Source: an uncultured virus (IMG/VR IMGVR_UViG_3300035497_000625) (Duplodnaviria; Heunggongvirae; Uroviricota; Caudoviricetes). Taken from it: a DNA stretch of 64,000 nt. Location: the IMG/VR virus record IMGVR_UViG_3300035497_000625. One strand, 5' to 3'. Each line of letters starts with the position of its first letter. Within the stretch, counting starts at the first letter, position 1. The notes beneath the pieces were generated by a model. It saw only the letters and a list, made by a program, of their open reading frames with translations. It was not told where the DNA came from and did not search any database. Position numbers and translations under genes: made by a program. Positions 3,032 through 57,678 of the stretch are shown here, piece by piece.

Positions 3032-3521
3032 TGGATATGCAACAGCAGGAAAAGACACATTTTGTTATTACGTTCAAGATTGTGCGAGACAAGATGGAGT
3101 AATAGATATTCACATCATGTCTACTATTGATAATATTAAACAATTAGCAATGGATATGTTAGGTTGGAATGGAGAAAAGAATGAAAAGAGTAGAAAAATG
3201 TTATGTAATCTAAAAAATTTATTAACTGAATGGAATGATTTACCATATCAAAATATTTCCAAAATGATTCATAATTTATATATTCAAGATGCAACAGCTC
3301 TTTTTATTCATTGTAGAGAACCTGAAGAAATACAACGTTTTGTTGATGATTTTAAAGCAGAAACAATTTTTATTGATAGAAAAACTGATACTAAATTTAA
3401 TAACGATGCAGATAAAAACGTAGAAAATTATTCATATGATTACATCATTGATAATAATCATACAAAAGAAGATCTATATTTCGCGGCGAAAGAATTTTAT
3501 AATAATCATATAAAAAATTAA
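3012..3521 (+). CDS. P-loop kinase, deoxynucleoside monophosphate kinase-like
   Basis: N-terminal Walker A INGYATAGKDT; HCREPEE resembles the D.R.P.E motif of phage dNMP kinases. Confidence 0.65.
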   Translation: MKIFVINGYATAGKDTFCYYVQDCARQDGVIDIHIMSTIDNIKQLAMDMLGWNGEKNEKSRKMLCNLKNLLTEWNDLPYQNISKMIHNLYIQDATALFIHCREPEEIQRFVDDFKAETIFIDRKTDTKFNNDADKNVENYSYDYIIDNNHTKEDLYFAAKEFYNNHIKN

Positions 3522-3595
3522 GTTGACTTTTTCCTTAAAACATGAGATAATAAGTCTATGATAAAAATCAAAAGGGAATTTGAAAGGAGAATTTT

Positions 3596-4075
3596 ATGAG
3601 TAAACATTATGTATGTTATTGTGATGGCGCGGCAACGATGGTTAAGCGTAATGGTGAATATCATAAAGGAGCGGGAGGTTATGGTGCTATCTTAATTGAT
3701 AGCGCCGATAATCAAATTATTTGTGAAAAATCAGAAGGAATGAAAGTAACTACTAATAATGAACAAGAATTATTAGGTATATTAAATGGAATAAAAATGT
3801 ATTTAGAAAGAAAACAAGACAATGACACGCTTTGCATCTGTTCTGATAGTGCTTATTCCATTAATTGTATAACTGTTTGGAGTAAAAAATGGAAAGCTAA
3901 TGGATGGAAAAAGAAAGGCGGCGAGATTAAAAATTTAGAATTGATTAAACAAATCTACGATTATTTCCTAGAATATGATATAACCTTTCAAAAAGTTAAA
4001 GGACATCAAGGAGTAAAATTTAATGAATATGTTGACCAATTAGCAGTGGCGGCGAAGAAATCTTTTCTCTATTGA
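3596..4075 (+). CDS. rnhA: Ribonuclease HI
   Basis: YCDGA, TTNNEQEL, SDSAY, W..NGW, KVKGHQG..FNE.VD.LA. Confidence 0.93.
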   Translation: MSKHYVCYCDGAATMVKRNGEYHKGAGGYGAILIDSADNQIICEKSEGMKVTTNNEQELLGILNGIKMYLERKQDNDTLCICSDSAYSINCITVWSKKWKANGWKKKGGEIKNLELIKQIYDYFLEYDITFQKVKGHQGVKFNEYVDQLAVAAKKSFLY

Positions 4076-4130
4076 TTTTTATTGAAAAGTAAGGTATAAT
4101 AGAATTATCAAATTTAAGGAGGATTTTTAT

Positions 4131-5276
4131 ATGGCAGATATAAAGATTTGTGAGAATATTATGATTGATGGATTTGATTTCGGTCAAATGGAAGCCATGA
4201 AGTATTATAGCATTAGTAAATCTTATAAAGGAAATAAAACTGAAAAGGCAAAATATATGACATTAAGTGGTGACTATATCGGCGCGAGAAAAATGGATGG
4301 AGTCTTTTCTTTAATTATTAAAGATATGGACGGAAATTTCTATATGAGAGGTCGTAATACTAATGTTAATGGAGATTATGCTGATAAGGTAGATTGGATA
4401 CCCCATATAATTGATGAACTAAAAGAGATTCCTAATGGTACTGCATTATTAGGTGAAATCTATTTTAAAGATGATGAGGGGTCTCGTAAGGTAACTACAA
4501 TTTTAGGTTGTTTACTAGAAAAAGCACTTCAACGTCAAGAGAAAGGTAAAAGGCTCCATTTCTATTGTTTTGATGTATTAGCATATGATGGGAAATCTTT
4601 GATTGAAACACCAATAGAAGTTAGAACTGGTCAATATTTAACAAAAATTTCTAGTAATGATTATATTGAAGTAGCAGAATATCTAGAAGGAGAAGATTTG
4701 TGGAATCTCTTTATTGATACTATTGCTATTGGCGGTGAAGGTATTGTTATAACTCAAAAAGATTGTCATTATCTTTGCGGCAAAAGAACTGCATGGAAAA
4801 CACTTAAACTTAAAAAAGAATTGGAAGATGGAATAGATTGTTTCTTAAGCGGACGATATAAAGAAGCAACTAAATTATACACAGGAAAAGATGTAGATAA
4901 CTGGCAACTATGGAGTTCTGAAAAGACTGGTGAAAAATTAGAAGGTAAGTATTATACTGACTATATGAATGGCAAACCAATAGTCCCTGTAACTAAAAAT
5001 TATTTCTATGGATGGGCTGGGTCTGTTGAATTAGCGGCGTATGATAAAGAAAATGATAGAATTATTCCTATTGGTTATGTTAGCGGCGTAACTGACGAGG
5101 TTAAGAAAGGAATCGTCCAAAATAATGAAGAGTGGAAATATAAATGTTGTGTTGCAACTTGTATGGAACTAGAACATATTGATGGAAACTTTTCTATGCG
5201 CCATCCTAGATTGGTACGTTTTAGAGATGACAAAAATTGGCAAGATTGTGACATTCGAGATATTTGGAAGGATTAA
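4131..5276 (+). CDS. lig: ATP-dependent DNA ligase
   Basis: RKMDG (motif I), LLGEIY, FDVL, EGIV, WKTLKLK, SMRHPRLVRFRDDK (motif VI). Confidence 0.9.
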   Translation: MADIKICENIMIDGFDFGQMEAMKYYSISKSYKGNKTEKAKYMTLSGDYIGARKMDGVFSLIIKDMDGNFYMRGRNTNVNGDYADKVDWIPHIIDELKEIPNGTALLGEIYFKDDEGSRKVTTILGCLLEKALQRQEKGKRLHFYCFDVLAYDGKSLIETPIEVRTGQYLTKISSNDYIEVAEYLEGEDLWNLFIDTIAIGGEGIVITQKDCHYLCGKRTAWKTLKLKKELEDGIDCFLSGRYKEATKLYTGKDVDNWQLWSSEKTGEKLEGKYYTDYMNGKPIVPVTKNYFYGWAGSVELAAYDKENDRIIPIGYVSGVTDEVKKGIVQNNEEWKYKCCVATCMELEHIDGNFSMRHPRLVRFRDDKNWQDCDIRDIWKD

Positions 5277-5369
5277 CTATTCCTATTGATTTTTTCACTT
5301 TGATAATTACATATATTGGTAGAGGAGTTTTAAACAGAACTCCTCATTTTTTATATAAGAGGTGATAAA

Positions 5370-6218
5370 ATGTTTCCTAAAAATTTAAAACCTATTCCTG
5401 GTAATTTGCCTCAGCCAACTCATATTAAAATTAAGCCGCAATGTTTCACTTGTAAACATTTCCAAATTTGCAATCTAAGAGACGATTATTTAAAAACTTG
5501 TTACTTAATTGAAAATGTACTAGGCAATCCCGCTCAAAGCTTTGAAATAGCAATGCAGCCACCTAGTCCTTTCCCTAATTATAAAGGAGAAATACTAAAT
5601 AATCAATTAGACGATACAACTTTAGTATTCCCTAATACAATTAAAAGTATAAGTGGACAAGATGGAGAATTTTTAGAAGCTAAATATGAGGACGAAAACA
5701 CAATTCACTTCCTTTATCGCTTTAAAAAGTGTTATTGTGTGATGTTTGATGCAACTTATAGTACTGATAAATGGGTTATATCAAAAGGAATAGAATCAAT
5801 TTATAAAGCTATATATGAAATTCAAACTGATGATATTGAAATAATTGAAGTCGGTTTAGCTTTATGGCGTGATAAATATTTAAGTGAAAAGCAGCCTAAT
5901 TGTGAATGTTGTAAGAAAGAACCTGATGTTATTAATACCACTTTCTTCTCTTCTGAAGTTAGATGTAATTTTTATGATTGGAATAAGAAACAATACAATG
6001 AAAGTATAGAGGATTTAATTAGGATCTATCCTAAAGGTGTTCCTCTTGGTCATCATGGATTTTTATATCATTTGGCAACATTCCATTGCGAACCTGATCA
6101 AGTTCCTTATTATCAAGATTGTGGATCAAATCCACCTTATTCTCCTTTACCATATCCTGCACCTCCTAAAAAGAGAAAAAAGTATATAACAAGAGATCAA
6201 ATTCAACATGAAGATTAA
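5370..6218 (+). CDS. Hypothetical Cys/His/Pro-rich protein
   Basis: 282-aa ORF with GAGGTG RBS; CFTCKHFQIC and CECC clusters. Confidence 0.7.
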   Translation: MFPKNLKPIPGNLPQPTHIKIKPQCFTCKHFQICNLRDDYLKTCYLIENVLGNPAQSFEIAMQPPSPFPNYKGEILNNQLDDTTLVFPNTIKSISGQDGEFLEAKYEDENTIHFLYRFKKCYCVMFDATYSTDKWVISKGIESIYKAIYEIQTDDIEIIEVGLALWRDKYLSEKQPNCECCKKEPDVINTTFFSSEVRCNFYDWNKKQYNESIEDLIRIYPKGVPLGHHGFLYHLATFHCEPDQVPYYQDCGSNPPYSPLPYPAPPKKRKKYITRDQIQHED

Positions 6219-6621
6219 TGAACCAAGTAAAGGAGAGCAGAAAATTATAAATATTTTACAACGACATAATATAAAATGCCGTAGAGAAGTTGAGTTTAGT
6301 GATTTAAAAGGTAGTCACGGCGCACCTCTACGTTTTGACATAGGAGTGTATAATAATCAAAATCAATTAATTTGTTTAATTGAGTACGATAGTGAAATTC
6401 ATTTTCAATTTGTTAAATTTTTCCATAAGACTATTACGAATTTTAACAAAAGAAAAGGATACGATAGAATTAAAAATCGATATTGTATTAGGAAAAATAT
6501 ACCTCTTATTAGAATCCCCTACTGGGATTTAGAAAATTTAACTTTTGAGCAAATTTTTAATAACCCAGCTTATAGAGTTAGATCAATTTATCATAATGAC
6601 TATTTAGGAGGTATAAAATAA
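6208..6621 (+). CDS. PD-(D/E)XK / Vsr-like (DUF559-type) endonuclease-fold protein
   Basis: SKGE..I, LRFD, IEYD..IH, D.IKN.YC....IPLIRIPYW. Confidence 0.7.
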   Translation: MKINEPSKGEQKIINILQRHNIKCRREVEFSDLKGSHGAPLRFDIGVYNNQNQLICLIEYDSEIHFQFVKFFHKTITNFNKRKGYDRIKNRYCIRKNIPLIRIPYWDLENLTFEQIFNNPAYRVRSIYHNDYLGGIK

Positions 6622-6998
6622 TGGGAGTTATAGAGATTTTATCAATTATCGGTGGCGTATGTGGTAGTATTATTACAATTTCTACTTGTGCAACTTTAAT
6701 TTTAAATAAACCAAAAACATGGATTAAAAATATAATTAAAGAAGTATTAAATGAGGAATCTTTTAATGATCAATTTAAAAATTTAGAGAATAAATTGGGA
6801 GATAATAAGGAAGCTTCTCTCGCGGCGCTACGTCATGAGATTGTAGAGATTTATGATGAATGGATTTCTAAAGGTTATTTACCAAAGAATGTTAAGAAAG
6901 ATTTAATAAGTCTTTATGATGCCTATCAAAAAAATGGTGGCAATTCTTTTGCAAAAGAACTGTATGATGAATTAGTACAATTAGAGACTAGAGAATAG
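6621..6998 (+). CDS. Holin-like membrane protein
   Basis: Single N-terminal TM segment, coiled coil, C-terminal LY.AY...GGNS motif typical of Firmicute phage holin-like proteins. Confidence 0.55.
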   Translation: MGVIEILSIIGGVCGSIITISTCATLILNKPKTWIKNIIKEVLNEESFNDQFKNLENKLGDNKEASLAALRHEIVEIYDEWISKGYLPKNVKKDLISLYDAYQKNGGNSFAKELYDELVQLETRE

Positions 6999-7082
6999 TA
7001 AAAGTTCAAGAGCATTTTGCTCTTGACTTTTTTTATAGAATGTTATATAATGATATTATCAAATCAAAAGGAGGAATTATAA

Positions 7083-9215
7083 ATGATACAAGTAAAAAAG
7101 GGAAATAAAGTAGAAGAGTATAATAAAGAAAGAATTAAAAGAGCTATAATTCAATCATATAATCAAATTACTTTGCCTGATTTTGATAAGGTTGATGAGG
7201 TTTTGAATGAGATTCAAGGCGAGATTTTAAATCAAGTGGAAGACAATGTGATTGATGTTAGTGCAATTGAGAATATCGTTATGTCAGTTTTGTATAAGAA
7301 ATTACCTGATGTTGCTAGAGAGTATTCTAGTTATAAAATGAATAAGGAAAGAATTTCAAAAAATCCAACTGAATTGGAAAAAGTTTTATATATGAATGAT
7401 GATGTTGCTCAAGAAAATGCTAATAAAAATGCAGAATTAGCACATATCAAAAATGCTTATCTTGCAGAAATTCCAAGTACAGAAGCAATGAGAAATGCGT
7501 TACCAGTAGAATGTCTAGATGCACATGATCGTAAAGTGGTATATTTCCACGATATGGCATATAGTTTCCGACCCCTTTTTAATTGCGAATTACTAAATTT
7601 AGAGGAAATATTAAAAGGTTGTGAAATTAATTCTACTTGGATCGAGCAGCCAAAAAGTTTTAGAACTGCTTGTACAGTTGCAACACAAGCACTTACTTAT
7701 GTTAGTGGAAATACTTATGGCGGCACAACAATTAATTTATTACATTTAGCAAAATATGTGGATGTAAGTAGGCAAAAAATTAGAAATAAATTTAAAAAAT
7801 ATAATCTTGATAATGAAACTTTTGAAAAATTAGTTAATGATGAATTGCTTAATGAAATTAAAGACGGATGTCAAACTTTACAATATCAATGTCAAACTTT
7901 ATGCTCCAGTGTTGGTCAAGCAGTATTTTTAACCATTTCTGTATATTTAAATGAAGACCCACAATATACTGATGACTTAATTTTAGTATTCAAAGAAATT
8001 TTAAATCAGAGAATTAAAGGTTTTAAAGATGCAAGTGGACATTATATTAATTCTAATTTTCCAAAAATTCTATATTTCTTAGATGAAGACACAATGCGTG
8101 GAGGGAAATATTATGATGTTACAAAACTTTGCGCTGAGTGTACAGCAAAAAGATTAGTACCTGATTATATGAGTGTCAAAAAACATTTAGAATTAAAAGG
8201 CATATGCACTCCAAGCATGGGTTGTCGCGCGCTTTTAAGCCCATACAAAGATGAAGATGGTAATTTTGTAACATGGGGACGCTTTAATTGCGGAGTTAAT
8301 ACACTTAATTTGCCTTATATTGCAATGGAAAACAATCCAAACCATTCAGAAGAAATAATGTTTAAAAATCTTGAACATTATTTAAATATTGCATATAGAG
8401 ATTTAGTTTGGAGAGTTGAGCACGTAGCCAAAATCAAAGCAAAAGTATGCCCTATTCTTTATCAATATGGCGGTGTAGCAAGATTACAACCAGAAGAAGA
8501 TCTATCTAAATTAGTATATGGAGGATATGCAACTGCAACAATTGGATATATTGGACTTTATGAAATGGTTTATTATATTACAGGAGAAAATCACTGGGAA
8601 GGAAAAGGTAAAGAACTTGCTCATAAAATTTTAGATTATATTAATACTGAAAATCAAAAGATGGGTGAAAGAATTAATGTTTCTATTGCATTGTATTCTA
8701 CTCCTAGTGAGACTTTAACTGATAAGGTTGCAAGAGCGTGTATAAAAGATTTCGGACAAATTGGAGACGGTACTCAAAGAACTTATATAACAAATGGTTA
8801 TCACATTCCTGTATTCCATCCTATTGATGCTTTTAGTAAATTAACTGAAGAAGCTCAATTTAGTGATAAAACTGCTGGTGGAAGTATTAGTTATGTTGAA
8901 TTGTGTAATTTATCTAATAATATAGATGTAGTATTAGAAATAATCGAACATATAGGTAATACTTGTTTATATGCAGAAATGAATAGCGAAGTTTCTCAAT
9001 GTGAAAATCCTGATTGCGGTTTTAGTGGATATGATTTTAAAAAGATAGTTGATGGTAGTACTATTCATTGGCAATGTCCTAAATGTGGAGAAATTGAACG
9101 AGTAAGAAGTAATTTTAGAGTATGTGGATATTTATCATCACTTAATCATTTAACAAGAGGAAGAGCACATGATGTTTTAGATAGGGTTAAACACGTTAAT
9201 ATAGAAAATGAATAA
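7083..9215 (+). CDS. nrdD: Anaerobic (class III) ribonucleoside-triphosphate reductase with N-terminal ATP cone
   Basis: ATP-cone start, ENANK, YFHD, SMGCR, GRFNCGV.TLNL, TPSE, C-terminal Cys pairs, glycyl-radical loop RVCGYL. Confidence 0.95.
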   Translation: MIQVKKGNKVEEYNKERIKRAIIQSYNQITLPDFDKVDEVLNEIQGEILNQVEDNVIDVSAIENIVMSVLYKKLPDVAREYSSYKMNKERISKNPTELEKVLYMNDDVAQENANKNAELAHIKNAYLAEIPSTEAMRNALPVECLDAHDRKVVYFHDMAYSFRPLFNCELLNLEEILKGCEINSTWIEQPKSFRTACTVATQALTYVSGNTYGGTTINLLHLAKYVDVSRQKIRNKFKKYNLDNETFEKLVNDELLNEIKDGCQTLQYQCQTLCSSVGQAVFLTISVYLNEDPQYTDDLILVFKEILNQRIKGFKDASGHYINSNFPKILYFLDEDTMRGGKYYDVTKLCAECTAKRLVPDYMSVKKHLELKGICTPSMGCRALLSPYKDEDGNFVTWGRFNCGVNTLNLPYIAMENNPNHSEEIMFKNLEHYLNIAYRDLVWRVEHVAKIKAKVCPILYQYGGVARLQPEEDLSKLVYGGYATATIGYIGLYEMVYYITGENHWEGKGKELAHKILDYINTENQKMGERINVSIALYSTPSETLTDKVARACIKDFGQIGDGTQRTYITNGYHIPVFHPIDAFSKLTEEAQFSDKTAGGSISYVELCNLSNNIDVVLEIIEHIGNTCLYAEMNSEVSQCENPDCGFSGYDFKKIVDGSTIHWQCPKCGEIERVRSNFRVCGYLSSLNHLTRGRAHDVLDRVKHVNIENE

Positions 9216-9316
9216 AATCCTAAAAGTCAAGTCCTATGGACTTGACTTTTTTTCCATTTTATAGTAAAATATTATTACCAATCAATAGATTGGATAATAT
9301 AATAGGAGGAATTTAA

Positions 9317-10279
9317 ATGACAAGAGACGAATTAAAAATGTTACAAGCACTTCCATTAGATGTTAAAATTGAAAAATCAAAAGTAAGAATAATGGAATGG
9401 GTAAAAGAATATGGTCAAGACGGTGTATACATTTCAACTTCGGGGGGGAAAGATAGTACGGTTCTAACTCACTTGGTTCGCAGTGTTTATCCTGATATAC
9501 CCGCTGTTTATATTGACACTGGATTAGAATGGCCCGAAAACAAAGCTAATGCAAAAAGTATTCCAAACATTACAATTTTAAGACCAAAAAAGAATTTTAG
9601 AGAAGTTATTCAAGAATATGGCTATCCACTTTTTACAAAAGGAGTATCACATATCTTTTACGCCGCGCGACAATCACATAAGAAAGGAGACTATGAACAA
9701 GAAGAACGTTATATTAAAGGCATTCGTACAAAGAAATCCACTGGTCTTGACTATGTATATTCTCCATTACCTAAATATGCGCTTGAATTATATAACAATT
9801 CAGACTACATGATCAATGATGCTTGTTGTACAATCATGAAGAAAGAACCAGCTAAAAGATATGAAAAAGAAACTGGCAGACATCCTTTTATTGGGACTTT
9901 AGCGGAAGAAAGTAAACAAAGACTTGAATCTTATTTAAGAGAAGGATGTAATAGTTTTAAAGCAGTAAGAAAAGTTAGCACACCATTAGGTTTTTGGACC
10001 AATAACGATATTTTAGAATATATACTACGATATGATCTACCTTTATCTAAATGCTATGGAGAAATTAAAAGAAATGAAAATGATCAATTATATTGTACAG
10101 AACGAAATCAAACAGGTTGTATATATTGTGGTTTTGGCGTACATAAAGAAAAATCACCAAATCGTTTTGAACTATTAAAACAATCTAATCCTAATATCTA
10201 TGACTATTGTATGAGAAAATGGGAACAAGGTGGACTTGGTATGGAAGAATTATTAACAGCAGCAAAAATTCCTCATTAA
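9317..10279 (+). CDS. PAPS reductase family (PP-loop) protein
   Basis: SGGKDS, DTGLE.PE, CC..MKKEP, TGCIYCGFG. Confidence 0.85.
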   Translation: MTRDELKMLQALPLDVKIEKSKVRIMEWVKEYGQDGVYISTSGGKDSTVLTHLVRSVYPDIPAVYIDTGLEWPENKANAKSIPNITILRPKKNFREVIQEYGYPLFTKGVSHIFYAARQSHKKGDYEQEERYIKGIRTKKSTGLDYVYSPLPKYALELYNNSDYMINDACCTIMKKEPAKRYEKETGRHPFIGTLAEESKQRLESYLREGCNSFKAVRKVSTPLGFWTNNDILEYILRYDLPLSKCYGEIKRNENDQLYCTERNQTGCIYCGFGVHKEKSPNRFELLKQSNPNIYDYCMRKWEQGGLGMEELLTAAKIPH

Positions 10280-10370
10280 TTAAAAGAAAATTAAGTCAAG
10301 TCATATCAGACTTGACTTTTTTTCTATCCTATAATATAATAATATTATCAAATCAAAAGGAGGTATATAA

Positions 10371-10742
10371 ATGAATTATCAATCAATATTAAAGTTATTT
10401 TTTCAATTATTAGAATCAAAATCTGATTTGCATATGGCTATTTACGTTGATTACTCTCATTATTCCAAAAACTTACAAAAATATACTTTAGATATAATGA
10501 AAAAAAATCATATTAACACACAACATATAAAAATAACTCAAAATTTTAATCAATTATTTTTTCATAATACAACGACAGATTCATTTTTACTTATTCAAAA
10601 AGCAGATTTTACATCAAGAGGACAAAAATTCAACATGGTTGCATATGATAATGATATTAATCAAGCAATATTAAAATTAATTTTAGTTCCACAGGCAATT
10701 ATTGGCAGTACACCAATTTATTTTCAAATGGAGGAATTTTAA
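10371..10742 (+). CDS. Hypothetical protein
   Basis: AGGAGG RBS and own promoter. Confidence 0.65.
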   Translation: MNYQSILKLFFQLLESKSDLHMAIYVDYSHYSKNLQKYTLDIMKKNHINTQHIKITQNFNQLFFHNTTTDSFLLIQKADFTSRGQKFNMVAYDNDINQAILKLILVPQAIIGSTPIYFQMEEF

Positions 10743-10806
10743 TTAAATTGATTTTTCTCTTAAACCATGATATAATAATTATAGAAATCAGAAAGGGGAT
10801 ATTTAA

Positions 10807-11355
10807 ATGATAGGTATTTATATGATTGAAAATATTCGTGACAATAAGAAGTACATTGGAAAATCACTTGATATATCTCGCCGCTGGGGAGAACATATAG
10901 AACAAGGTCGTTATGCGACTTCAGTTGAAGATGAGCTTCATTATGAACTATATGAGCATCCTTATAGGTTTAGATTCCAAATTTTAGAGGAATGTAAAGA
11001 AGATGAATTAAACGAAAGAGAAGCTTATTATATTAATCTTTATAATTCAATTGAAAAAGGTTATAATAAAATCAATGCTTCTATTGATTCATATCAAGAG
11101 AAAGAAGATAAAGAGCCAACTAAAAAGGAAATTATTCAATTAATTACAAGATTATTAGAAAAACCTTTATTAAAAGAAGATAAAGAAAAGATTAGTAAGT
11201 TCTTTAATCTCAAAGGAACAAGTGGAAAACAGTTAAAATGGCCCTCTGTTAAACGTTTGATAATTTCCCAAGGCTTTGACGTAATTGAAACCAGAAGAAA
11301 AGTTAATGGAGTGCAAGTAAATTGTAGTGTTATCAGATTAAGATGGGAGGATTAA
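10807..11355 (+). CDS. Free-standing GIY-YIG endonuclease
   Basis: MIGIYMIEN...KYIGKS.DI.RRW.EH, LNERE.YYI, GYN. Confidence 0.85.
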   Translation: MIGIYMIENIRDNKKYIGKSLDISRRWGEHIEQGRYATSVEDELHYELYEHPYRFRFQILEECKEDELNEREAYYINLYNSIEKGYNKINASIDSYQEKEDKEPTKKEIIQLITRLLEKPLLKEDKEKISKFFNLKGTSGKQLKWPSVKRLIISQGFDVIETRRKVNGVQVNCSVIRLRWED

Positions 11356-48890: not shown

Positions 48891-51206
48891 TTAATAATAT
48901 AATGGTGTATATTTAATTGTTGCGCCGTCTAAAAATTGATTATATCCCCAATATGTAGGTGGGAATAATTCCCAAATATAGTTTTCTGCATATTGAAACC
49001 ATTCACTGATTGTACCAGAAAGTTTATTGTCACCTTTTCCTGTTGATTGACCAGTTAACATTGACCAATAGGATTGAATCGTTTTTAGGAATTGAACTTC
49101 TAAACTATGGAGCTTTTGTGTATATAATGATTCTACAAAATTTTTATTATCTTCATTCTTTTCATTATATTCCTCCCATCCAGCTAACCAGTGACGAATT
49201 AATTCTTGATTAGAATAATCATTAGATGTTAATCCTAAATTCCATTTTGCATAAGTAAGAAAATTATCTTTTGCTAAATCATATACGCAATTATAGTACG
49301 CGCGCATAAGATCTGCATCATATTCTGTACTATTGTTATTATAACCCCAATAATACTCTCGTGCAGCTTTCCATGTTTTATCATCTGTAATATCTTGATC
49401 TAATACTGGAATAATTTCAATTACGCTCCAGCCAGGAGGTAGTTGAAACCAGTGACCTTTAGTTATATAATCATTGAGAATGTTTTTAGATTTTGTACCA
49501 TAATAAGTATTGGTATTATCTTCTATTATATTATACAACATTCTGTTTTCCGTGTCAAGTATTAGTTGCTCTGGTAGGTCTGAAGCATTTCCTCCTTCAT
49601 CTATTGACAAATCGGTTATATCAATTTCAAGATAATCTCCAGTGTAGTATTGAGGAAGATTATTATAATTAAAAATAAATTGACCATATGCAGCATCCTC
49701 TGAATCAACTAAATATTCTGGTGGATCAAATAGATAATCATTAATGAAACTATCAATAGTATAGTTAGTGTACATTGATTGTTGAGTGCTACTCTTAAAA
49801 AAGCTAGTATTGCCATAGAATTTAAGTACGGTATTAATTAAAGTTTCCCAATATAACTGAAATTTTTCTTGTTCTGTTATACACAAATCATACAATTCTT
49901 CATATCGATCCGCCGCGGCTGATAATTCATTTAATTGATTAGTAAAACCTGTATTAGATTTTGCGGTTTGATAACAAAAAGTTCTAATATAATCTCCTAA
50001 TTTTTCTCTTGGAATTGGTTCAATCATATAACAATGTTTAGGATGACAAGGTCCTAAATCATCAAAAGATTCATGTCCAGATAACATTTCCGCAACTGTA
50101 TCTTGTAAATCATCAACAGACAAAGATTTAATTTCATTATTACTAACCAATCTGTCAATACTGCTTCCATCTATATCTCCAACACGTTTAAAATACTTAT
50201 TATCATATTTATAAGTCACATTATCATTTAAATCTTGAGTTGTCAATCCACACCAATTAACTGCATCTGCTAGACCTAAACGCTGAACATTTAAACGCCT
50301 AATTCTAAAACGTTTATGCCCATTTGCATCTTTATGTTTTTGAAAAAATGTAGATAGGCCAGGATTGTTGAAATTTAATTCAAAATCAATAGGTAAATCA
50401 CCAGGATTATATACAAAAAGGCGATTGGTTAATAAATTTGTGTCTATTGTTTTATCAAAGCCTTTATCTAAATTTAAATATCCAACCTTTGAACATTGAG
50501 GAGCATACATTAATTCCTGATCATAATCAAGAGTAGGAGTAGTTAATAATCTACTGCTGTGCGCCCATTCTGGTATGTTATCCCAATAACGTCTTACGTC
50601 AATAATTGATCTAGTACCAGAAGGAGTATTGAAATAGAGTTCTCCTTTTTTCACTTGATCATATGTTGGATAGCCGCCGTACCATGGTTGAATATTAATT
50701 TCAGTATTGTACCATTCTTTAATTGCTTTTTCTGGCGGAGTATGAATGTAATAATCTGCTGATCTTACTATGTATTTATTAAAACAATAAGCAAATGGAG
50801 AATAGCAAATCATATTGAGTGTGCCAGTACCTTTATAGACTCTTTCTCCATCTTGATTTAAAAAGCAAACATATTTAAAAGTTGGTTTAGATTTAATTTT
50901 TGCTTTATAAGTTTTATAAGGACGTTCATCAAAAACTAAATCTTGTGGTTTATCATTTCCAAAAATTTGAGAGATTAATCGTAAATTATCTTCGGTAATA
51001 CTATCAAACGCAAGATTTAAAGTAAATTCTCTTGTACTAAAAATAGAGCCAAAATAATACTTACCATTACTGCCGCTAATATCAGTTGTTGTATCAGTAT
51101 TTGATGGTAATAAATCTTGAGAATAGAAATTGCTTGAGCTTGTTACGATTAAGTTTAAATCTTTTGAATGGTAGTTTCCAAAACGAAAATGAATGAAATC
51201 TGCCAT
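48891..51206 (-). CDS. Distal tail (Dit-like) protein with large insertions
   Basis: F.FG..HS.DL.L, G.YYFG...REFTL, LVFDE.PYK.Y, PFAY, YNPGD, I.Y.PLYY C-terminus. Confidence 0.75.
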   Translation of the reverse strand: MADFIHFRFGNYHSKDLNLIVTSSSNFYSQDLLPSNTDTTTDISGSNGKYYFGSIFSTREFTLNLAFDSITEDNLRLISQIFGNDKPQDLVFDERPYKTYKAKIKSKPTFKYVCFLNQDGERVYKGTGTLNMICYSPFAYCFNKYIVRSADYYIHTPPEKAIKEWYNTEINIQPWYGGYPTYDQVKKGELYFNTPSGTRSIIDVRRYWDNIPEWAHSSRLLTTPTLDYDQELMYAPQCSKVGYLNLDKGFDKTIDTNLLTNRLFVYNPGDLPIDFELNFNNPGLSTFFQKHKDANGHKRFRIRRLNVQRLGLADAVNWCGLTTQDLNDNVTYKYDNKYFKRVGDIDGSSIDRLVSNNEIKSLSVDDLQDTVAEMLSGHESFDDLGPCHPKHCYMIEPIPREKLGDYIRTFCYQTAKSNTGFTNQLNELSAAADRYEELYDLCITEQEKFQLYWETLINTVLKFYGNTSFFKSSTQQSMYTNYTIDSFINDYLFDPPEYLVDSEDAAYGQFIFNYNNLPQYYTGDYLEIDITDLSIDEGGNASDLPEQLILDTENRMLYNIIEDNTNTYYGTKSKNILNDYITKGHWFQLPPGWSVIEIIPVLDQDITDDKTWKAAREYYWGYNNNSTEYDADLMRAYYNCVYDLAKDNFLTYAKWNLGLTSNDYSNQELIRHWLAGWEEYNEKNEDNKNFVESLYTQKLHSLEVQFLKTIQSYWSMLTGQSTGKGDNKLSGTISEWFQYAENYIWELFPPTYWGYNQFLDGATIKYTPLYY

Positions 51207-51220
51207 TTATTTCCACCTCC

Positions 51221-51256
51221 AAAAATGAGCGAAGATTTTAGATAAATCTTCACTCA
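51221..51256 (-). terminator. Terminator-like hairpin after the tape measure gene
   Basis: TGAGTGAAGATTT / AAATCTTCGCTCA followed by TTTTT on the minus strand. Confidence 0.6.
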
Positions 51257-51269
51257 GTTAAGTTATATT

Positions 51270-54200
51270 TTATTTACGAAGGATAACAGAAGATCCAATT
51301 GGATTAGATGCTTCGTTAATACGTTCTTCCATTAAGTCTAACATTGATTCTACATCGTAATCACTTGAAATTGATTCTATGTTAAGATTGATACTAACAG
51401 TTCCTCCTGTATATGATGTGTTGGAGTTATTGGTTACGTTATTGAGAGTTGAGGAAATGTTGGATATAGGAGATTCTGTTTGGTTAACTAGTGGAGTTGA
51501 AAGATTCATTGAACGTAGTGCTTGAGCTAATGCTGCGATGTTACTTGTATCTTCTGGGTCTAAGAATGCTTCTGGTTCTGATTTTGTACCATCTACCCAA
51601 GCTGGACCAGTAAAGTCTACCATACCACCTGATGCGTAATGTTTTACAGAAAGATTTTTTCCTTGAGAACTTAAATACTGTGCATTAGAATTGATAAAAT
51701 CTTGTGCCTCTTGCTCACTAGTAAACCAGTTTTCATTACTAAGAGGAGTACCAGAAGCTTCTAAACTATGTAGGCTTTCCAAATCATCTTTTCCATTAAC
51801 ACTAACGTAATATCGTTCTGAAGCTTCGGACATCCTTTGATTTTCTAAATCTTGTATATACTGCACACAATTGTTCTGTAATTGACGAATTTGTTCATCA
51901 ATACCAGATATTACAGTCGCAGCATCTGTACCTAATCCTTTCAATGCTTCATCTAAATTTTGAGTAGCAGTATCAAGATCTGCTTGAGCTGTTGACAAAT
52001 CTTGTTCTGCAGTGGTTAATGCTTCTAAAGTAGTCGACTCTGTATCATAAGCATCTTTAACTGCTTGTGCTCTAGTTTCTGCAGCTTCTTGTGTTTTTGT
52101 AGTCACGTCATCCAAAGCTTCTTGATAAGCAGTTTGCATTTTTACTAAATTTTCTTCAGCATTAGTAACTGTTTCTTGTGCAGATTCAATAGCTGTTTGA
52201 GCTGTTTCTATAGCCTCATCTCTAGCAACTACACCAGCTTCTAGCACTTGGTTTCCTACTTCAGTACTAATATTTAATGTTGTAAGTATTTCATTAACAC
52301 TATCCACATCTGCTTGAATTGCATCTGTAATGCTACCTCCAACATCAGCTAATACTTGTTGAACAGCTTCAAGACTAATAGCATTTGTATAATCAGTTTC
52401 AGCTTCTTGTGCATATTGAACTTGAGCTTCAGTACTCATGTCTTGAACAGATGAATCATTGCTCATAAACCATTCAACAGCATCAGCAGAATCTGTCCAT
52501 CCCTGAATAATTTCATTAGCTTGAATCCACCAATCAGTAGTTTCCATCAAAGCGTTTAAATATTCAATTTCTTCTTCTCTTGCCTTTTGTTGAGTTTCAT
52601 ACATTTCTTGCATAGAGGAAATTAAATTATCAACTTCTTTATCAAGTAATGATTGACGAGTGTTTTCAACTTCATCCTCAAGTGTTGCAACTTCTTTTTG
52701 ATTAGCTCCAGAGGTATCTCTTGACATTAAAGATAATTTCTTTTCTTTTGTTGCTAATTCTTCATATTGACTTGCTTGATCTCTTAAATCACGTTGTTTC
52801 TGAATTGCATCCTGTAGAGCACTGATATAATCATCATCTGCCTCTTTTAAATTATCATATTTATCTTGTACTGCATCTATCTCTGCTTGAGCATTTTCTT
52901 TTAAAATTTTAACTACTTTATCTTGAGTTGATATATAATTTTTTAATGCTGTTGTATAATAGTTCTCCCATTCATCTTCAAGAGCTTCCATTTCTTCAGT
53001 TGCAGTTGCCATTGAGTCTACTTCTTTATTATATTCTGCTTGTAATTTTACTAATGCATCTTTAATAGCATCACTTGCATCTGCATTTTCAAGAGCACTG
53101 GTGTCAAGCATCATTCGTCCATCAACAGTGAATTGAACTGAATCACGAACATTGGCATATGCGTCATTACTATAAAGGTCAGATAACATATTATCTAAAC
53201 TTTGTTGTGTAGATTGTTTTTCTGCTTCAAGTAAATTCATTTTTTCTTTTTGTGCCGCAATATAGGCTTCTGTACTAGAAACCATACTATCCAAATCTGA
53301 AGCATCTTCCATATTTGATTTTAAGGTTTTTAAACGAGTATTTAATCCAGTTAACATTTGATTTGCTGAATCTAATCGTTCAAGGCCGCTATCCCAATCA
53401 GCAGAACCATGAATTGCTTCATATAAATCTTCTTGAGCTTCTGCAAGTTTTTCTTGGGCATCTGCTAAAGTATCATACGCATCTTGTAATGATTTTAAAG
53501 CACTCTCTGCAGCTTCTTCTGCTTCTTTAATCGTTTTAGCTTCTTCTTCATATGCATCAGCAATAGCTTTTTCTCGTACTGCTGCTGCATTGTCTGCTGC
53601 TTCTTTTGCTTCATCATATGCTTCTTGTTTTTCTTTTAAAGTTTTTTCCGCTTCATCTACTGCATCTTGTGCCTCTTGAATTGTTTCTTTTATTGCTTCA
53701 AGTAGTGAAACTTGATTTTGAAATTCTAATGAGATTTCTTTTTCTGCCTCTTCTGTTCGTTCTGCAATTTGATCTGTTAAAGTCGATTGTTCTTTTAGTA
53801 ACTCAGTTTTTTCTTCTTCTAATTCAGTAGTATCCATACCTAATTTTTTATAATTTGCTATTTTATTATCTAATTCTTGAATTTGAGATGTTACAGTATT
53901 TAAACGTTCTTGTTCAGTTCCTAATTCTTTTTTCAATGCTTCTTCATTTGTTGCAATTGTTTCTGAAAATAGATTTTGCACTTTCTCCATTTTAATTTCA
54001 AATTTACCAGTATCAATATCTAATTCATACACATCACTTAATCCAGCTTCATCGAGAGTGTTTAATTGTTCTCTAGTTAAGCCAATAGACGTATCAATCT
54101 CATCCATTATTGAAGTAATTGTATCAGCTTGAGTAACCATTGTTTCTCCTGCTTCTTTTGCTGATGTGATTAATGTATTAAAAGCAGTTGCTGATCCATA

Positions 54201-57200
54201 TTCAAATGAACCTACTAAATCATTAATATCTCCAAACACTGATTTAACTTTTTCTAAAGCTTCATTAAAACTAAGAGCACCACTTGAATCTGTCATTAGC
54301 TGTTCGGCCAAGTCTTCCATTGTTTCTTCTACATTTAAAGGATTCACTTCGTCCCAGTTAACATTTGCATTTAATATCAAATCTAATTCATTTTCTGATA
54401 ATACACTATCCTCGTCATTTAATATATTAGTCAACATTGTTTGAAGTTTTTCTTTGGCTTGTGCTTGAGCTTCATCTCCAGTAACATTATTAGCAATAAA
54501 ATTGGACATTGTTGAGATAGTTGTAGGATCAATTTGAGTAAAAAGATCCGCCCACATACCCTGGCCTTGATCTCTAAGAGCATCTCCAGCAGCTTCAAAA
54601 TCTCCATTTTTTATTGCATCAGTAAAAGCAGTTGCTGCATCTTCTGACGTAAATAGATTAGAGAAAAATCCTCCAGTAATTTGTCCGCCTTCATTCTGTG
54701 TTAAAAACATATTTGCATATTGTTCATAATCAACAGTAGCTGCAGATTCAATATTGTCTTTATAAGCATCTCCATATTGACCTTCTAACTTTTGAATACT
54801 TTGCTGGTATTCATCAAGAGACATTGTGCTTATATTTTCACTTACTTCAGCAAAGCTATCAACTAATTGCTCTGGAATTTCTTCTGCTGCAGTTTGCATA
54901 TCATTTTCAATATACTGAGTAAATGTATTATCTCTAATAAGTTTTGCTAAATGTTCTGCATCTCCTCTCATGTTAACAAATGTATCTGCAGTTAAGCCTG
55001 TGATTGCTGATAATGTTTCTTCGGATAAGTTTACAGCTTCGGCCGCACTCGAAAAATCTTCTGCATTTATTAATGATGACATAAAATCTGAGCCTTCAGA
55101 GAGTGCTGCTGGATCTAAATTGGTTAATGATTTAAATTCTTCATTAATATATTGACTAGTTTTTTCTATTGCCTCTTGATCATCTTCAAGTAATAAACGT
55201 TGTAATTCAATAAGCTCATCAGCTGCATCAGTATTTGTTACCATACTAGCTTGCGTTGCTCCTACTGTTGCAGTAATATTACTTTGATAATTTTGACGTT
55301 GTGATTCTATATATCGTTGGTTAGACGCTTCATCTGCTTCATTAATAATGTCATCAATTCCCTCTTGCTCGTCTAATATTTGTTGATAAAATTCTAACGC
55401 ATCTTGATTATTATCTAAAATTTGTTGCAGCACATAAGAAAGATCAACTTCTCCTTGTGTACCATGCTCTTTATAATAATCGTCAAATAATTTTAACATT
55501 TGATTAATTTCATCAGCTTTATTATCATCTGCTGCTATACGACCTGAGGCAATGGCGGTCGAATAATTATCATTTATTGCTTGACTAATACTATCATAAT
55601 CTGTTAATCCTTGATTGATAACATCTTGTAAAGCTGAAAAATCAGCAGAAGTACCTGTCTCATAAATATCTGTAGTGTATGTAGTATCTCCATTCTCATT
55701 AGTCTTAGTATAAAAACCGCCTTCTAATTGAAGTTTAGCTTTTTGATTTTTTGTTTTTTCAAGTTCATATTCTTCTGCATTTACATTACTCTGAGTGCCA
55801 AGAGCTATTGCTTGAGATAATTCCGCAATTTCTTTTGCATCTTCTAATTGCTGATTCCACAAATCTTCACTAATAATTAATTTATTATTCATTTCATCAT
55901 AATATGCAACTGTATCTGAATATTCATCATTTATTGTTTCAACTAACTCATTGTATCTTTCTTGTTCATCCTCAGTTAAACTAATTTTATTATTTAATTC
56001 ATCCCATTCTTTTTTTACACTCTCCATTGTTGAAACTGCTTGTTGATCTGCTTTTGCTGTAGATGTAGTAGTTTCGGCAGCTTCTTTTAAATCTTCAAGA
56101 TTTTTTTTCATAGTTGAAATCTCTGCATCTAAGCTCTCAGATAAAGAAGTCCATACATTGTTTTTCTTATAATAATTATAAATTAGTGCACCTAAGCCAA
56201 CAACTACAACTGTTCCTATTGCTATAGCAGCTAGAGCGGCTGGATTTGATAATATAGGAATAAGTGTAGGGATAAACGCGGCGAGTTGCTTTCCTAAAAA
56301 AGATATAAATTGAGGAACTAATTGAGAAATCATGCCTGTTACTAAAGTTAAACCAGTTGTCTTTAAAGCAGTTGAAAAATCTCCTGTAGAAATAGCAGTA
56401 ATAATTCCACTAGTAATTGCAGATCCTATTGAAGATTTAAATGCACCTTTTATTGCACTTGCTGCACTATTAACTACTGGACCAAGAGCACCAAAAGAAT
56501 TACTTAAATTTTGAGTTGCTTGCTGTAATTGTTGACTAGATGCTGACCCTTCTCTGACTGCTTGAATATATTGTCGTAAAGCTGTAGTCGTATTTTCCTC
56601 ATTAGTTATATCTTGCTGAAGAACTACTCCCATTTGTTGTAATTTTGCAACGAACTGATCATATGCTGCAGTGCCAGCAGTAAGTTCTTCAGTTCCACCC
56701 ATTTTTTTATATAATTCATTTACTTCTGTTTCTGTTAATTCCGTAACAGAACCAACTTGTTGTAATTTAGTATAAAAATCAGTTAATGCTTGAGCAGAAA
56801 TAGGCTGATCAGCTAAAGAAAAAAGATTCTTTTGTCTATTAGTTAATTCTAAAAATTGAGTATTAATTTTTTCCATTTGTTGATTAAATGCGCTTGTTGC
56901 TTGTTGAAGATTTTGCTCTAATTGTTTTTTTGCATTATCAGAAAAAATTAAACTACTAACTTTTGTTCCTATCTTACTTTTGCTTAAAACTGTCGCTATT
57001 CCTGTATTAATAGAATTACCAGCTGTACTTGCAGCTGTTTTAAATGCAGGAGTAACCTGTTTGTTAAAAACATCTGCTACAGTTCCAATATTTGTTTTCA
57101 TGCCATTAATAAATTGAGAAACAAAGTTTTTACCAACTGTTAAGCCGATTACAGCAATAAATGCCAAATCTTTTATACTAATATCTTTTTTAATCCCACT

Positions 57201-57678
57201 TAATAATTTATTACCTAAATCTAAAGCATCTTTATAAACATCCTGATCCAATAACGAAACTCTTAATTGCTCCCAAGTATTTTGAATTTGTTCAATTTTA
57301 TATTGAACAGTATCTTGATATTTATTAAATTGTACAGTTGATTGTCCAGTTGACTCATAAGCTGTTGCTTGTAATTCAAGTGTTCTATCATAATCACTCA
57401 TCATTGCAATAAATCTCGACTGTTGCCTACTACCCGCCGCGGTAGTTGCGATATAACGTTGAGTATTTCTATCAAGTGTATCCCATTTTTCTGCCAATTC
57501 AAGAAAGACATCATCTAGATCTCTAAATTGACCACTAGCATCTTTAATTGAAATACCAACAGACTTTAATGCTGTATCTACATCATTATAATCAAGATCA
57601 TCAAATTCACTATCTGCTGCAGATACATTTTCTTTTAATTCTGTAAATCTTGCAATGATGGTTTTCATTGCTGTACCG
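51270..57678 (-). CDS. Tail tape measure protein, exon 4
   Basis: GTAMKTIIARF, W..LDRNTQRYIA...AGSRQQSRF, TM region, long coiled coils, YASGG.VDFTGPAWVDG. Confidence 0.9.

Follow-up and report, generated by a model that had tools for sequence, protein, structure and literature searches.

The palindrome GCSGC is over-represented throughout the genomes of a group of large AT-rich siphophages

The window, by which we mean the whole stretch of 64,000 nucleotides analysed here, has a GC content of 30.2%, slightly more than the roughly 28% estimated in the preliminary description. It carries an early, nucleotide-metabolism and replication block on the plus strand (2054..37842) and a structural block that includes a 2298-aa tail gene (41986..48879, minus strand). 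On its plus strand, 16 exact copies of the heptamer CGCSGCG are found (nine CGCGGCG and seven CGCCGCG), all at the positions reported before. From left to right, they lie at 3482..3488 (TTC GCG GCG, F-A-A, in a dNMP-kinase-like gene, 3012-3521), 6821..6827 (CTC GCG GCG, L-A-A, gene 6621-6998), 9661..9669 (TAC GCC GCG running into CGCGCG within the G/C run CGCCGCGCG, PAPS-reductase-like gene 9317-10279), 13737..13743 (TCC GCG GCG, gene 13258-13770), 19338..19344 (GAC GCG GCG, gyrA-like gene 17539-19920) and 21587..21595 (extended to CGCGGCGGC, with two overlapping GCSGC, gene 21288-22223). A PIN-PhoH gene (23347-24543) contains two copies, 23586..23592 (TCC GCC GCG) and 23988..23994 (GTC GCG GCG), as does a DnaE-type polymerase gene (30550-34467), with ATC GCC GCG at both 31173..31179 and 32040..32046. 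These are followed by 34970..34976 (ACC GCG GCG, conserved gene of unknown function, 34467-35393), 36941..36947 in a dUTPase gene (36344-37117) and, in minus-strand genes and given as coding-strand codons, 38588..38594 (ATC GCG GCG, gene 38327-38758) and 49911..49917 (GCC GCG GCG within a 10-base G/C run, 49910-49919, Dit-like tail gene 48891-51206). The last two copies, 56277..56283 (CTC GCC GCG) and 57435..57441 (ACC GCG GCG within the 10-base G/C run 57433-57442), belong to the tape-measure gene (51270-57668, minus strand). As noted before, most copies encode Ala-Ala and one lies in another frame: 15 of the 16 read nnC GCS GCG (X-Ala-Ala), although 82% of the Ala codons in the window are GCA or GCT, and the dUTPase copy reads CGC GGC G (R-G-E).

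Dinucleotide shuffles predict 0.05 copies of the heptamer, and none of 100 shuffles reached 16. Shuffling synonymous codons within genes gives a mean of 0.48 and a maximum of 3 (n=300), and the expectation is 0.27 when the codons are pooled over all genes. First-order codon frequencies, that is, dicodon frequencies, predict 4.8 copies in frame 2, where 15 are seen. As these expectations lie far below the observed counts, the enrichment persists under the codon and dicodon nulls on which the preliminary description had let it stand or fall. Of the 21 codons that precede GCS-GCG, 15 have C as their last base, as compared with 7% of codons overall, a cooperativity that extends over three codons. 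The many one-off variants mentioned earlier are likewise real, since G/C-only runs of at least 7 bases number 48 against 9.3 in a codon-preserving shuffle; eight copies of CGCGCG occur, in G/C runs starting at 8226, 9661, 12633, 27914, 43987, 48754 and 49299.

Read on opposite strands, CGCGGCG and CGCCGCG are one palindrome whose central base is degenerate, so that the two orientations noticed earlier, both of which do occur as words, represent a single symmetric site, CGC-S-GCG. Nor is the heptamer the basic unit for which it had been taken, as the excess is carried by a shorter core. This 5-bp palindrome, GCSGC, is the conserved unit, and the heptamer is a lineage-specific extension of it. 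The window (1..64000) contains 85 GCSGC sites, 81 inside ORFs and four outside, or 1.3 per kb, which is about 3-fold the 28.6 expected from a protein- and codon-preserving shuffle and about 8 times the 10.9 expected from an order-1 Markov model. Under the protein- and codon-preserving null, the pooled close clade (143,084 codons) has 911 sites against 276. GCSGC is the most enriched of all pentamers (428 against 128.8, z 31); 872 sites in 439,245 bases correspond to 1.99 per kb, and the L004-type has 272 sites in about 95.5 kb. Once GCSGC is masked, the remaining G/C-only 4-mers and 5-mers all lie at 0.4-1.4 times expectation, the excess being restricted to this one motif. The flank preference differs by lineage, with C...G in the window, which yields the heptamer, and GGCGGCG in the L004-type; the non-palindromic GCGGCG is the favoured extension in most lineages. 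The extension in the window is palindromic and cooperative on both sides (0.198 against 0.019 per site).

The GCSGC excess belongs to the DNA duplex and not to the mRNA or its translation, since it is found in all three frames, equally in both strand forms, and also in ORF-free DNA. In frames 0, 1 and 2, the window has 47, 28 and 6 sites against 18.8, 4.7 and 0.8 expected, and its relatives have 80, 77 and 30 against 35.0, 16.4 and 3.0. The excess is strongest in frames 1 and 2 (4-7-fold), and the same frame-resolved analysis was flat in four control phages. The strand-bias analysis suggested in the preliminary description revealed no bias: on the coding strand, GCGGC is enriched 3.0-3.4-fold and GCCGC 3.1-3.8-fold in four lineage groups. 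ORF-free DNA, part of which may be unannotated genes, holds 36 sites against 5.4 in genome G002 and 4 against 0.8 in the window. Within genes, the word is enriched across the amino-acid pairs RA, GA, SG, GG, CG and RR. The earlier proposal of a dispersed DNA-level signal is thereby borne out, also because AT-rich controls (SPbeta, EF5, T4, phage K and pSOL1) do not have the excess.

Among related phages, the excess was observed in 57 of 59 non-duplicate loci with a DnaE identity of 43-77%. Measured in frames 1 and 2, it is at least 2-fold in 21/21 loci at 60% DnaE identity or more and in 36/38 loci at 43-56%, and in none of three loci at 40% or less. Three contigs of 100-140 kb, divided into 10-kb bins, show it along the whole genome. 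The carriers are phage contigs with tail, tape-measure and replication genes, not cyanobacterial chromosomes, and the group is made up of large siphophages that are AT-rich and have a DnaE replication module of the SPbeta type. No gene of this module tracks the trait by presence or absence. One relative was binned with a Gastranaerophilales MAG, whose chromosomal contigs (G006, the only candidate host chromosome) have just a weak and symmetric 1.5-fold excess (1.53-fold for GCGGC against 1.48-fold for GCCGC). In the loci at 43-56% DnaE identity, frames 1 and 2 also show a mild excess of GCWGC (222 against 141.4), so that what is recognised may in truth be GCNGC, with S preferred at the centre.

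Along the window, the pressure towards GCSGC is near saturation in the early and replication block, where 29 of 32 Ala-Ala pairs are written GCS-GCN and GCSGC reaches 4.0-4.7 times the null. The structural block is weaker, with 1.0-2.3-fold in large genes and up to 3.0-fold in small ones, and the 2298-aa tail gene has no excess at all (1 site against 1.0, and a GCS-first codon in none of five Ala-Ala pairs); this gene is possibly a recent acquisition. Retention could be followed in the related pair G003/G004 (synonymous identity 0.834), in which third-position G/C was kept in 308 of 388 cases inside sites (0.79) and in 134 of 220 cases in the SS_SS context outside sites (0.61; Fisher p 1.8e-6). 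The proposed check of site conservation has a divided outcome, with better retention in this recent pair; at long range, stratification by amino-acid context leaves no conservation of positions (Mantel-Haenszel z 0.89, odds ratio 1.56, at low power), which fits a general pressure, mutational or selective. The 71 differences listed for G003/G004 include 12 clean double changes (positions 2+5 or 1+4), which suggests that nothing holds back the loss of the remaining G/C after a first change has broken the site. In addition, crowding is avoided: pairs of sites 6-20 bp apart make up a fraction of 0.024, whereas the null gives 0.066 (p 8e-4).

Two proteins of the window had been named as possible partners. 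A putative amino-type (m6A/m4C) DNA methyltransferase (12078..13175, plus strand), which occupies a variable methyltransferase slot between nrdG and gyrB, does look like an amino-methyltransferase by its motifs GFGAR and SCPPFF and by PF01555 in some homologues. As the cognate enzyme it fares less well, since it is lineage-specific, absent from three large relatives that share an equal excess, and of 77 phage loci with a homologue of it, 76 have no heptamer excess. A survey of phage-encoded genes found no methyltransferase common to the window, G003, G004, the L004-type and G002; they encode the 12078 family, a D12-class enzyme, a PF01555 enzyme, a C5-methyltransferase and none that was found, respectively. 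The second protein, a small winged-helix protein (20668..20943, plus strand) with weak LexA-DBD, EarA and Sta1 matches, is conserved in the group and for this reason stays a candidate GCSGC binder.

In our preferred reading, to which we give an even chance, selection maintains GCSGC as the recognition site of a symmetric (dimeric), sequence-specific factor that binds or modifies DNA genome-wide. The group keeps GCSGC at about 2 sites per kb, and it does this with rare synonymous codons ending in G or C, used wherever the amino-acid sequence leaves room for the word. The factor would probably be encoded by the phage, or else be one that all hosts of the group share, and its role would lie in genome maintenance (replication, recombination or packaging) and not in gene expression. 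The number of sites would then count and not their exact positions. Flank preferences drift by lineage, as a co-evolving recognition protein would yield. While the enrichment, its duplex nature, its confinement to a single motif, its phylogenetic spread and the motif-specific retention are observed, we infer that selection and not biased repair maintains the sites, that a protein reads them, and what this protein does.

The most serious alternative is that GCSGC sites pile up and persist without function, as a neutral by-product of a motif-specific mutation or repair bias. This could be a methyl-C-directed mismatch-repair ratchet as proposed by Elhai for highly iterated palindromes, GCsGC among them, or a GCSGC modification that shields cytosines from deamination under AT pressure. 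There is a precedent, as GCsGC is over-represented in Cyanothece PCC 7822 alongside GCsGC-specific methyltransferases (Elhai 2015, PMC4390886). Motif-specific protection or repair could equally account for the better retention of G/C inside sites, and the lack of long-range conservation in the low-power test, the double changes, and the presence of some methyltransferase in most lineages would also fit. However, the fold-excess is equal in all lineages (3.0-3.8-fold) without a common methyltransferase, neither Vsr nor MutS was found in G002-G005, and the deamination products GTSGC/GCSAC are not depleted (ratio 1.10). The restriction regimes differ as well, with CCGG and GATC missing from G002 but present in G003/G004, so that a common host enzyme is not obvious, and the only candidate host chromosome reaches just 1.5-fold. 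As the short-range exclusion of sites is furthermore not predicted by a ratchet, we consider a neutral origin unlikely, though it deserves to be taken seriously.

A Chi-like function had also been suggested, in which GCGGC or GCGGCG would tame a host RecBCD/AddAB nuclease, both orientations being selected since the phage DNA has two exposed ends. Chi words known from AT-rich Firmicutes are short and G/C-rich, and they are over-represented, as GCSGC is; their reading is confined to one strand, and their orientation is normally skewed. HIPs (highly iterated palindromes) have themselves been likened to Chi sites as GC-rich words (Elhai 2015, PMC4390886). The favoured non-palindromic extension GCGGCG and the importance of site density over position would suit such a role, but four lineage groups agree in an equal coding-strand enrichment of GCGGC and GCCGC, the candidate host chromosome is weak and symmetric, and the extension in the window is palindromic with two-sided cooperativity. 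Chiefly on account of the strand symmetry, we regard a Chi-like word as improbable.

Avoidance of GCWGC restriction sites, which would push Ala-Ala from GCW-GCN to GCS-GCN, shares with our data the gain of GCSGC and loss of GCWGC at Ala-Ala. Indeed, GCWGC is depleted in every clade member (52 against 79.6 in the window) and nearly gone between 10 and 40 kb of the window (3 against 23.3), and genuine GCWGC avoidance is seen in many unrelated phages. The depletion is nevertheless restricted to frame 0, with 35 against 33.8 in frames 1 and 2 (70 against 66.3 over 21 loci), and ORF-free DNA is undepleted (15 against 13.7), whereas GCSGC peaks in frames 1 and 2, where it is no alternative to GCWGC. 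Loss only where a synonymous alternative exists is not restriction avoidance. As positive control, 19 unrelated avoiding loci, drawn from the 77 phage loci with homologues of the methyltransferase, are depleted in all frames (66/255.7, 5/32.3 and 8/23.4, thus 13 against 55.7 in frames 1 and 2) and gain GCSGC mainly in frame 0, the reverse of the group studied here. Contradicted by the frame analysis, this explanation is very improbable. A translational effect, through codon-pair bias or tRNA reuse at Ala-Ala and Gly-Gly, could be read from the X-Ala-Ala context of 15/16 heptamers and from the codon pair GCG-GCG (14 against 1.4 in the window), but it retains hardly any probability, as the same word arises from different amino-acid pairs and frames, both strands are equally enriched, ORF-free DNA shares the excess, five AT-rich controls do not, and tRNA-Gly(ccc), tRNA-Lys and tRNA-Gln are the only tRNAs encoded in the window.

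The HIPs of cyanobacteria have been known for decades, and their function is still unexplained. The preliminary description had pointed to HIP1, and the HIP class is indeed the closest analogue, GCsGC being a published 'alternative HIP' of Cyanothece PCC 7822 (Elhai 2015, PMC4390886). HIPs are described there with about 1000-2000 instances per Mb and as co-occurring with a methyltransferase able to methylate the word. For HIP1, Xu et al. 2018 (PMC5861425) argued for selection from the two tests also applied here, enrichment in three frames and stronger conservation of codons within the motif. HIP1 (GCGATCGC), the alternative HIPs and the phage GCSGC are all short G/C-rich palindromes that occur about 1000-2800 times per Mb in coding DNA, enriched in three frames, with constituent codons better conserved inside the motif (here in the G003/G004 pair), and with word variants that differ by lineage. 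They differ in that the carrier here is a phage group and not a cyanobacterial chromosome, that no conserved cognate methyltransferase appears among the surveyed phage-encoded genes, and that GCSGC sites, unlike what is reported for HIP1, are not positionally conserved at long range in a low-power test. The fold-excess is also modest (about 3-fold over the codon null and 8-fold over the Markov model) beside the 15-300-fold of HIP1 (PMC5861425). By analogy, the GCSGC excess may be regarded as the phage counterpart of the cyanobacterial iterated palindromes, and the literature searched, largely titles and abstracts, yielded no phage for which an iterated palindrome had been described. A bolder version, which we offer tentatively and consider possible rather than probable, is that GCSGC is the first 'highly iterated palindrome' to be shared by a whole family of viruses, and that it marks the phage's own DNA or serves as a loading signal for a phage-encoded dimeric reader that co-evolves with it (CGCSGCG here, GGCGGCG elsewhere). 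Such a reader might, for example, recruit phage replication, priming, topoisomerase or condensation machinery onto the AT-rich genome.

A HIP-type feature, with the word of a published variant, is thus present in deep-branching uncultured phages of 100-140 kb. With the frame-resolved test, a word under positive selection can be told apart from ordinary restriction avoidance, and the two were seen here side by side. For annotation and design it follows that synonymous sites of these phages are not free. The carrier genomes are small and encode their own replication machinery, and recoding them for tests could become feasible when a host is known; a phage-encoded dimeric reader, if true, would provide a small, genetically tractable model for the long-unexplained HIP phenomenon.

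All 16 exact copies of CGCGGCG or CGCCGCG that the preliminary description had located were recovered, each in its place. At the 30.2% GC content of the window, dinucleotide shuffles predict 0.05 copies, within-gene synonymous-codon shuffles, which preserve all proteins and the codon usage of each gene, predict 0.48 copies with a maximum of 3 in 300 shuffles, and codons pooled over all genes give 0.27. The copies had been described as mostly Ala-Ala coding with one in another frame, and indeed 15 of the 16 read nnC GCS GCG (X-Ala-Ala; S is G or C) and the remaining one, in the dUTPase gene, has the phase CGC GGC G. Both orientations do occur as claimed, but CGC-S-GCG is a palindrome with a degenerate centre, and the two forms are its opposite strands. 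The enrichment survives a codon/dicodon null (first-order codon expectation 4.8 frame-2 copies, 15 observed), where a dicodon-preserving null retains most of any word contained within one codon pair. A C-ending codon precedes the GCS-GCG pair in 15 of 21 cases, as compared to 7% C at third positions overall.

Runs of at least 7 G/C-only bases number 48 in the window against 9.3 expected, and runs of 3-4 bases are depleted. The over-represented words are GCSGC (85 vs 28.6), CGSCG, CCGCG, CGCGC, CGCGCG and CCGCGG, with no excess of words containing GGG or CCC. The core GCSGC is reached via the codon pairs GCG-GCG, GCC-GCG, CGC-GCG, GGC-GCG, AGC-GGC, GGC-GGC, TGC-GGC and CGC-CGC, which encode different amino acids, yet all carry the same DNA word. 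In the close clade (143,084 codons) GCSGC occurs 911 times against 276 expected, and when it is masked, all other G/C-only 4-mers and 5-mers lie between 0.4x and 1.4x; since no other G/C word is enriched, the clade-wide “GC islands” are one motif, and a “GC clamp” or other general clustering of G/C was rejected. Regional GC heterogeneity was likewise rejected, as the islands have sharp boundaries with AT-rich flanks. In the window, masking leaves two remainders, namely two-sided CG extensions (0.198 of sites vs 0.019) and alternating CGCGCG (7 vs 0.4); with CGCG masked too, almost nothing remains, the single residual 6-mer being CGGCGC (5 vs 0.9). The flank preferences of GCSGC differ by lineage: L004-type phage has C at position -1 in only 1% of sites, avoids CGCG (13 vs 46.1) and prefers the extension GGCGGCG (75 of 272 sites), and the loci L005 and L006 prefer GGCGGCA. 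The heptamer accordingly varies: the window has 16 copies where 0.7 are expected, the related genomes G002-G004 have 11-12 against 1.3-2.2, and L004-type phage has 0 against 1.4.

GCSGC is enriched in all three reading frames. Observed and expected counts in frames 0, 1 and 2 are 47/18.8, 28/4.7 and 6/0.8 in the window and 80/35.0, 77/16.4 and 30/3.0 in six relatives, and four control phages are flat (30/30.3, 10/9.3 and 6/4.1). On coding strands of four lineage groups, GCGGC is enriched 3.0-3.4x and GCCGC 3.1-3.8x, and ORF-free DNA, which may include unannotated genes, holds 36 sites vs 5.4 in G002 and 4 vs 0.8 in the window. The signal thus acts at the DNA level and is neither translational nor restriction avoidance; three-frame enrichment, equal strands, the ORF-free excess and the flat controls bear out the earlier proposal of a dispersed DNA-level signal. 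GCSGC is one palindrome belonging to the DNA duplex, and it exceeds what codon-preserving nulls predict. Two of the four intergenic sites make up a hairpin-like inverted repeat, GGCGGC ... GCCGCC, at 14386-14411 in the gap upstream of gyrB.

The extent of the trait was followed through an alignment of DnaE, which gave 80 loci; 71 loci of at least 9 kb were screened (65 of these and 6 obtained separately), and 62 were left after nine near-duplicates had been removed. In this screen, which samples only ~20 kb around DnaE, GCSGC reaches 2.55x, 4.25x and 7.48x in frames 0, 1 and 2 at a DnaE identity of at least 60% (21 loci, 402 kb), and 2.18x, 3.08x and 6.12x at 43-56% identity (38 loci, 736 kb). 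An excess of at least 2x in frames 1 and 2 is found in 21/21 and 36/38 loci of these groups, respectively, and with z of at least 3 in 19/21 and 32/38. At 40% identity or less, none of three loci shows an excess, and SPbeta and EF5, also at ~40%, are flat. Three contigs of 100-140 kb show the excess in all 10-kb bins, whichever way the genes point. GCWGC (W is A or T) shows a mild excess in frames 1 and 2 of the 43-56% group (222 vs 141.4), so that recognition may extend to GCNGC, with S strongly preferred at the centre.

One relative's contig was binned into a Gastranaerophilales MAG (G006), together with two more phage-like contigs. A host-lineage trait was rejected, as frames 1 and 2 show no excess in five relatives of this MAG. 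The apparent signal of the MAG comes largely from contigs C24 and C47; both carry the phage signature and homologues of phage structural genes. In the phage-like contigs, CCGG is avoided and GCSGC is at 5-6x in frames 1 and 2. On the chromosomal contigs GCSGC is symmetric and only at 1.5x, and the restriction profile differs, GGCC being nearly absent and CCGG abundant, which makes the Gastranaerophilales host assignment weak. At least three contigs of the bin, ~115 kb in total, are phage-like (C24 with L021-L023, C47 with L028, and L004/L014); the GGCC count is 46 vs 269 in the full ~300 kb sample, which includes them.

How sites persist can be seen in the recent pair G003/G004 (median protein identity 95.7%, synonymous identity 0.834). 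Inside GCSGC, 308 of 388 third-position G/C bases are shared by both genomes (0.79); the matching figures outside sites are 134 of 220 for SS_SS context (0.61; p 1.8e-6), 367 of 637 for S_S context (0.58) and 1835 of 2496 for W_W context (0.735). It is the motif itself, not G/C context, that protects synonymous G/C, which also rules out the generic clamp. Sites present in one genome of the pair only differ mostly by transitions, and the 71 listed site differences include 12 clean double changes at two synonymous positions and 3 further rows with multiple changes. Between the window and its relatives synonymous sites are near saturation (0.417), and an apparent positional conservation (raw 19/40 vs 26/194) turned out to be a Simpson artefact of amino-acid context (stratified MH z 0.89). 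The viral and metagenome collections yielded no close relatives of the window for a polymorphism test, the sole near-identical record being its own sequence. The pressure fills any context able to host GCSGC, and individual sites are replaceable. In the window, the early/replication block is nearly saturated, with 29 of 32 Ala-Ala pairs written GCS-GCN, and the structural block is unsaturated (18 of 60); the 2298-aa tail gene shows no excess. Sites are evenly distributed without a gradient along genes, and regular spacing was rejected, gaps being Poisson-like (CV 1.18). Pairs 6-20 bp apart are under-represented (fraction 0.024 vs 0.066, p 8e-4). The trait is conserved across a deep phage group, and its sites are retained in a motif-specific manner. 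The shuffle-based z-scores rest on 30-300 shuffles, and multiple relatives are non-independent observations.

The main rival to selection on the sites is a neutral methylation- or repair-linked bias, as Elhai proposed for the highly iterated palindromes (HIPs) of cyanobacteria (PMC4390886). Such a bias does not predict the short-range exclusion of sites, and no conserved enzyme was found in the phage group that could account for it. The putative MTase gene at 12078, named earlier as a candidate cognate, encodes GFGAR and SCPPFF motifs, with PF01555 on some homologues, and is probably an amino-MTase judging from its sequence; it is without homologue in G002-G004, which show the GCSGC excess, and only one of 77 loci of its family has a heptamer excess (L084, 6 vs 0.9), so this candidacy fails. 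MTases instead vary by lineage, with a D12-class gene in G003, a PF01555 gene in G004 and none found in G002. The gene lies between nrdG and gyrB in the window (slot 11893-14510) and in G003 (G003:C1 ~63100-64860), and the G004 gene (G004:C1 ~64457-65026) is placed in this slot by its similar contig coordinate alone; the slot looks like a swappable anti-restriction cassette. A C5-type MTase gave a weak match on the phage-like contig G006:C24, and a phage C5-MTase was rejected as partner, as PF00145 was not found in G002-G005 or G019. Vsr-type repair was rejected as well: GTSGC/GCSAC is not depleted, and no Vsr or MutS was found in G002-G005. SPbeta-group phages may methylate GCNGC, but this lead was dropped, as SPbeta shows no excess. 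No replication-module gene tracks presence or absence of the trait. The wHTH protein at 20668 is conserved across the phage group and is a candidate motif binder. Sequence searches against solved structures gave no match for the conserved unknowns 34467 and 21288 or for 12078, and NCBIfam none for 2054, 5370, 21288, 34467 and 12078. A PAPS-reductase-like gene at 9317-10279 (DndC/IbrA-type fold family), with no homologue detected in G003, is another lineage-specific gene and may be DNA-modification-related.

Restriction avoidance, in which GCSGC would merely replace a shunned GCWGC, could draw on the depletion of GCWGC in all clade members (window 52 vs 79.6). This depletion is limited to frame 0, where Ala-Ala has a synonymous alternative; summed over lineage groups, frames 1 and 2 are not depleted (35 vs 33.8), nor is ORF-free DNA (15 vs 13.7). 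An unplanned positive control came from 77 loci of diverse uncultured phages with homologues of the 12078 MTase, many of which truly avoid GCWGC. In the 19 strongest avoiders, GCWGC is down in all frames (66/255.7, 5/32.3 and 8/23.4; 0.25x), and GCSGC gains mainly in frame 0 (3.5x vs 1.5x and 1.4x). The studied group has the reverse frame pattern, and together with the control phages this disfavours avoidance. Avoidance of CGCG (0.4-0.5x) is also widespread among these 77 loci (L080-L159). A Chi-like function is disfavoured by strand symmetry, and a translational one by strand symmetry, frame pattern and controls. A general trait of AT-rich DNA was rejected, as SPbeta, EF5, T4 and phage K are all flat, and so is pSOL1 in frames 1 and 2.

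The window comes from a large siphovirus-like phage whose host is an anaerobe. Its structural genes include a tape measure (2132 aa), a Dit-like protein and the 2298-aa tail protein, and its replication and nucleotide genes comprise NrdD/NrdG, GyrB/GyrA, ligase, RNase H, a Sak4-like ATPase, PIN-PhoH, DnaB, primase, RecJ, a DnaE-type Pol III alpha, ClpP, dUTPase and RuvC. Among named phages, SPbeta-like phages of Bacillus and Enterococcus phages of ~140 kb come nearest, at ~40% DnaE identity. There are three tRNAs and several homing endonucleases (GIY-YIG x2, HNH x2, LAGLIDADG; 10807-11355, 16425-17132, 39764-40231, 57692-58372 and 59500-60303), and the DnaB helicase is split over two ORFs (25142-26260 and 26588-27331). 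In G003, DnaE is in three pieces with LAGLIDADG- and GIY-YIG-like ORFs in between. In-frame TAGs occur at a homologous place of DnaE in L005:10001-13960 (codon 408) and L006:5160-9586 (codon 410), two more lie in a Dam-like gene of G003 (G003:C1:64067-64636), and in the G003 late region (~105-120 kb) code 11 gives short ORFs only, with the tape-measure gene in pieces. One possibility is recoding of TAG in part of the group, another the presence of introns at these places. Gene calling was crude (longest non-overlapping ORFs of at least 60-80 aa, code 11), and these TAGs and fragmented late genes make the gene sets of some relatives incomplete; the called pieces still hold frame.

A second over-represented word of the window, ATCAATAG/CTATTGAT, has 33 copies vs 6.0 expected, for example at 4069-4076, 5283-5290, 9281-9288, 19935-19942, 26473-26480, 30156-30163 and 59344-59351, and its CAATAG core 102 vs about 42. 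It is not palindromic, CTATTGAT is on the coding strand in most copies, and several copies are found between genes or at their ends; possibly the word is a regulatory element or a terminator-proximal one. CCGG occurs once in the window vs 12.4 expected, and CCGG and GATC are almost absent over 100 kb of G002 (L066-L070) but not in G003/G004, a pattern of lineage-specific restriction avoidance. Words containing GATC, CATG and TCGA are depleted clade-wide.

Among known features, the HIP class comes closest. GCsGC is an “alternative HIP” of one cyanobacterium according to PMC4390886, and selection on HIP1 was argued in PMC5861425 from three-frame enrichment and from codons better conserved inside the motif. 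Phage GCSGC is enriched in three frames, and its codons are better conserved inside the motif in the recent pair G003/G004; at long range no positional association is left once amino-acid context is stratified. It differs from HIPs in its phage carrier, its fold-excess, the lack of a conserved MTase and the lack of long-range positional conservation. A literature search over partial texts found no report of GCSGC or highly iterated palindromes in phages. In our reading, a symmetric factor working genome-wide in these phages would recognise GCSGC, and selection would maintain the sites for it. The constraint would then lie on the number of sites and not on their positions, and flank preferences would drift from lineage to lineage.
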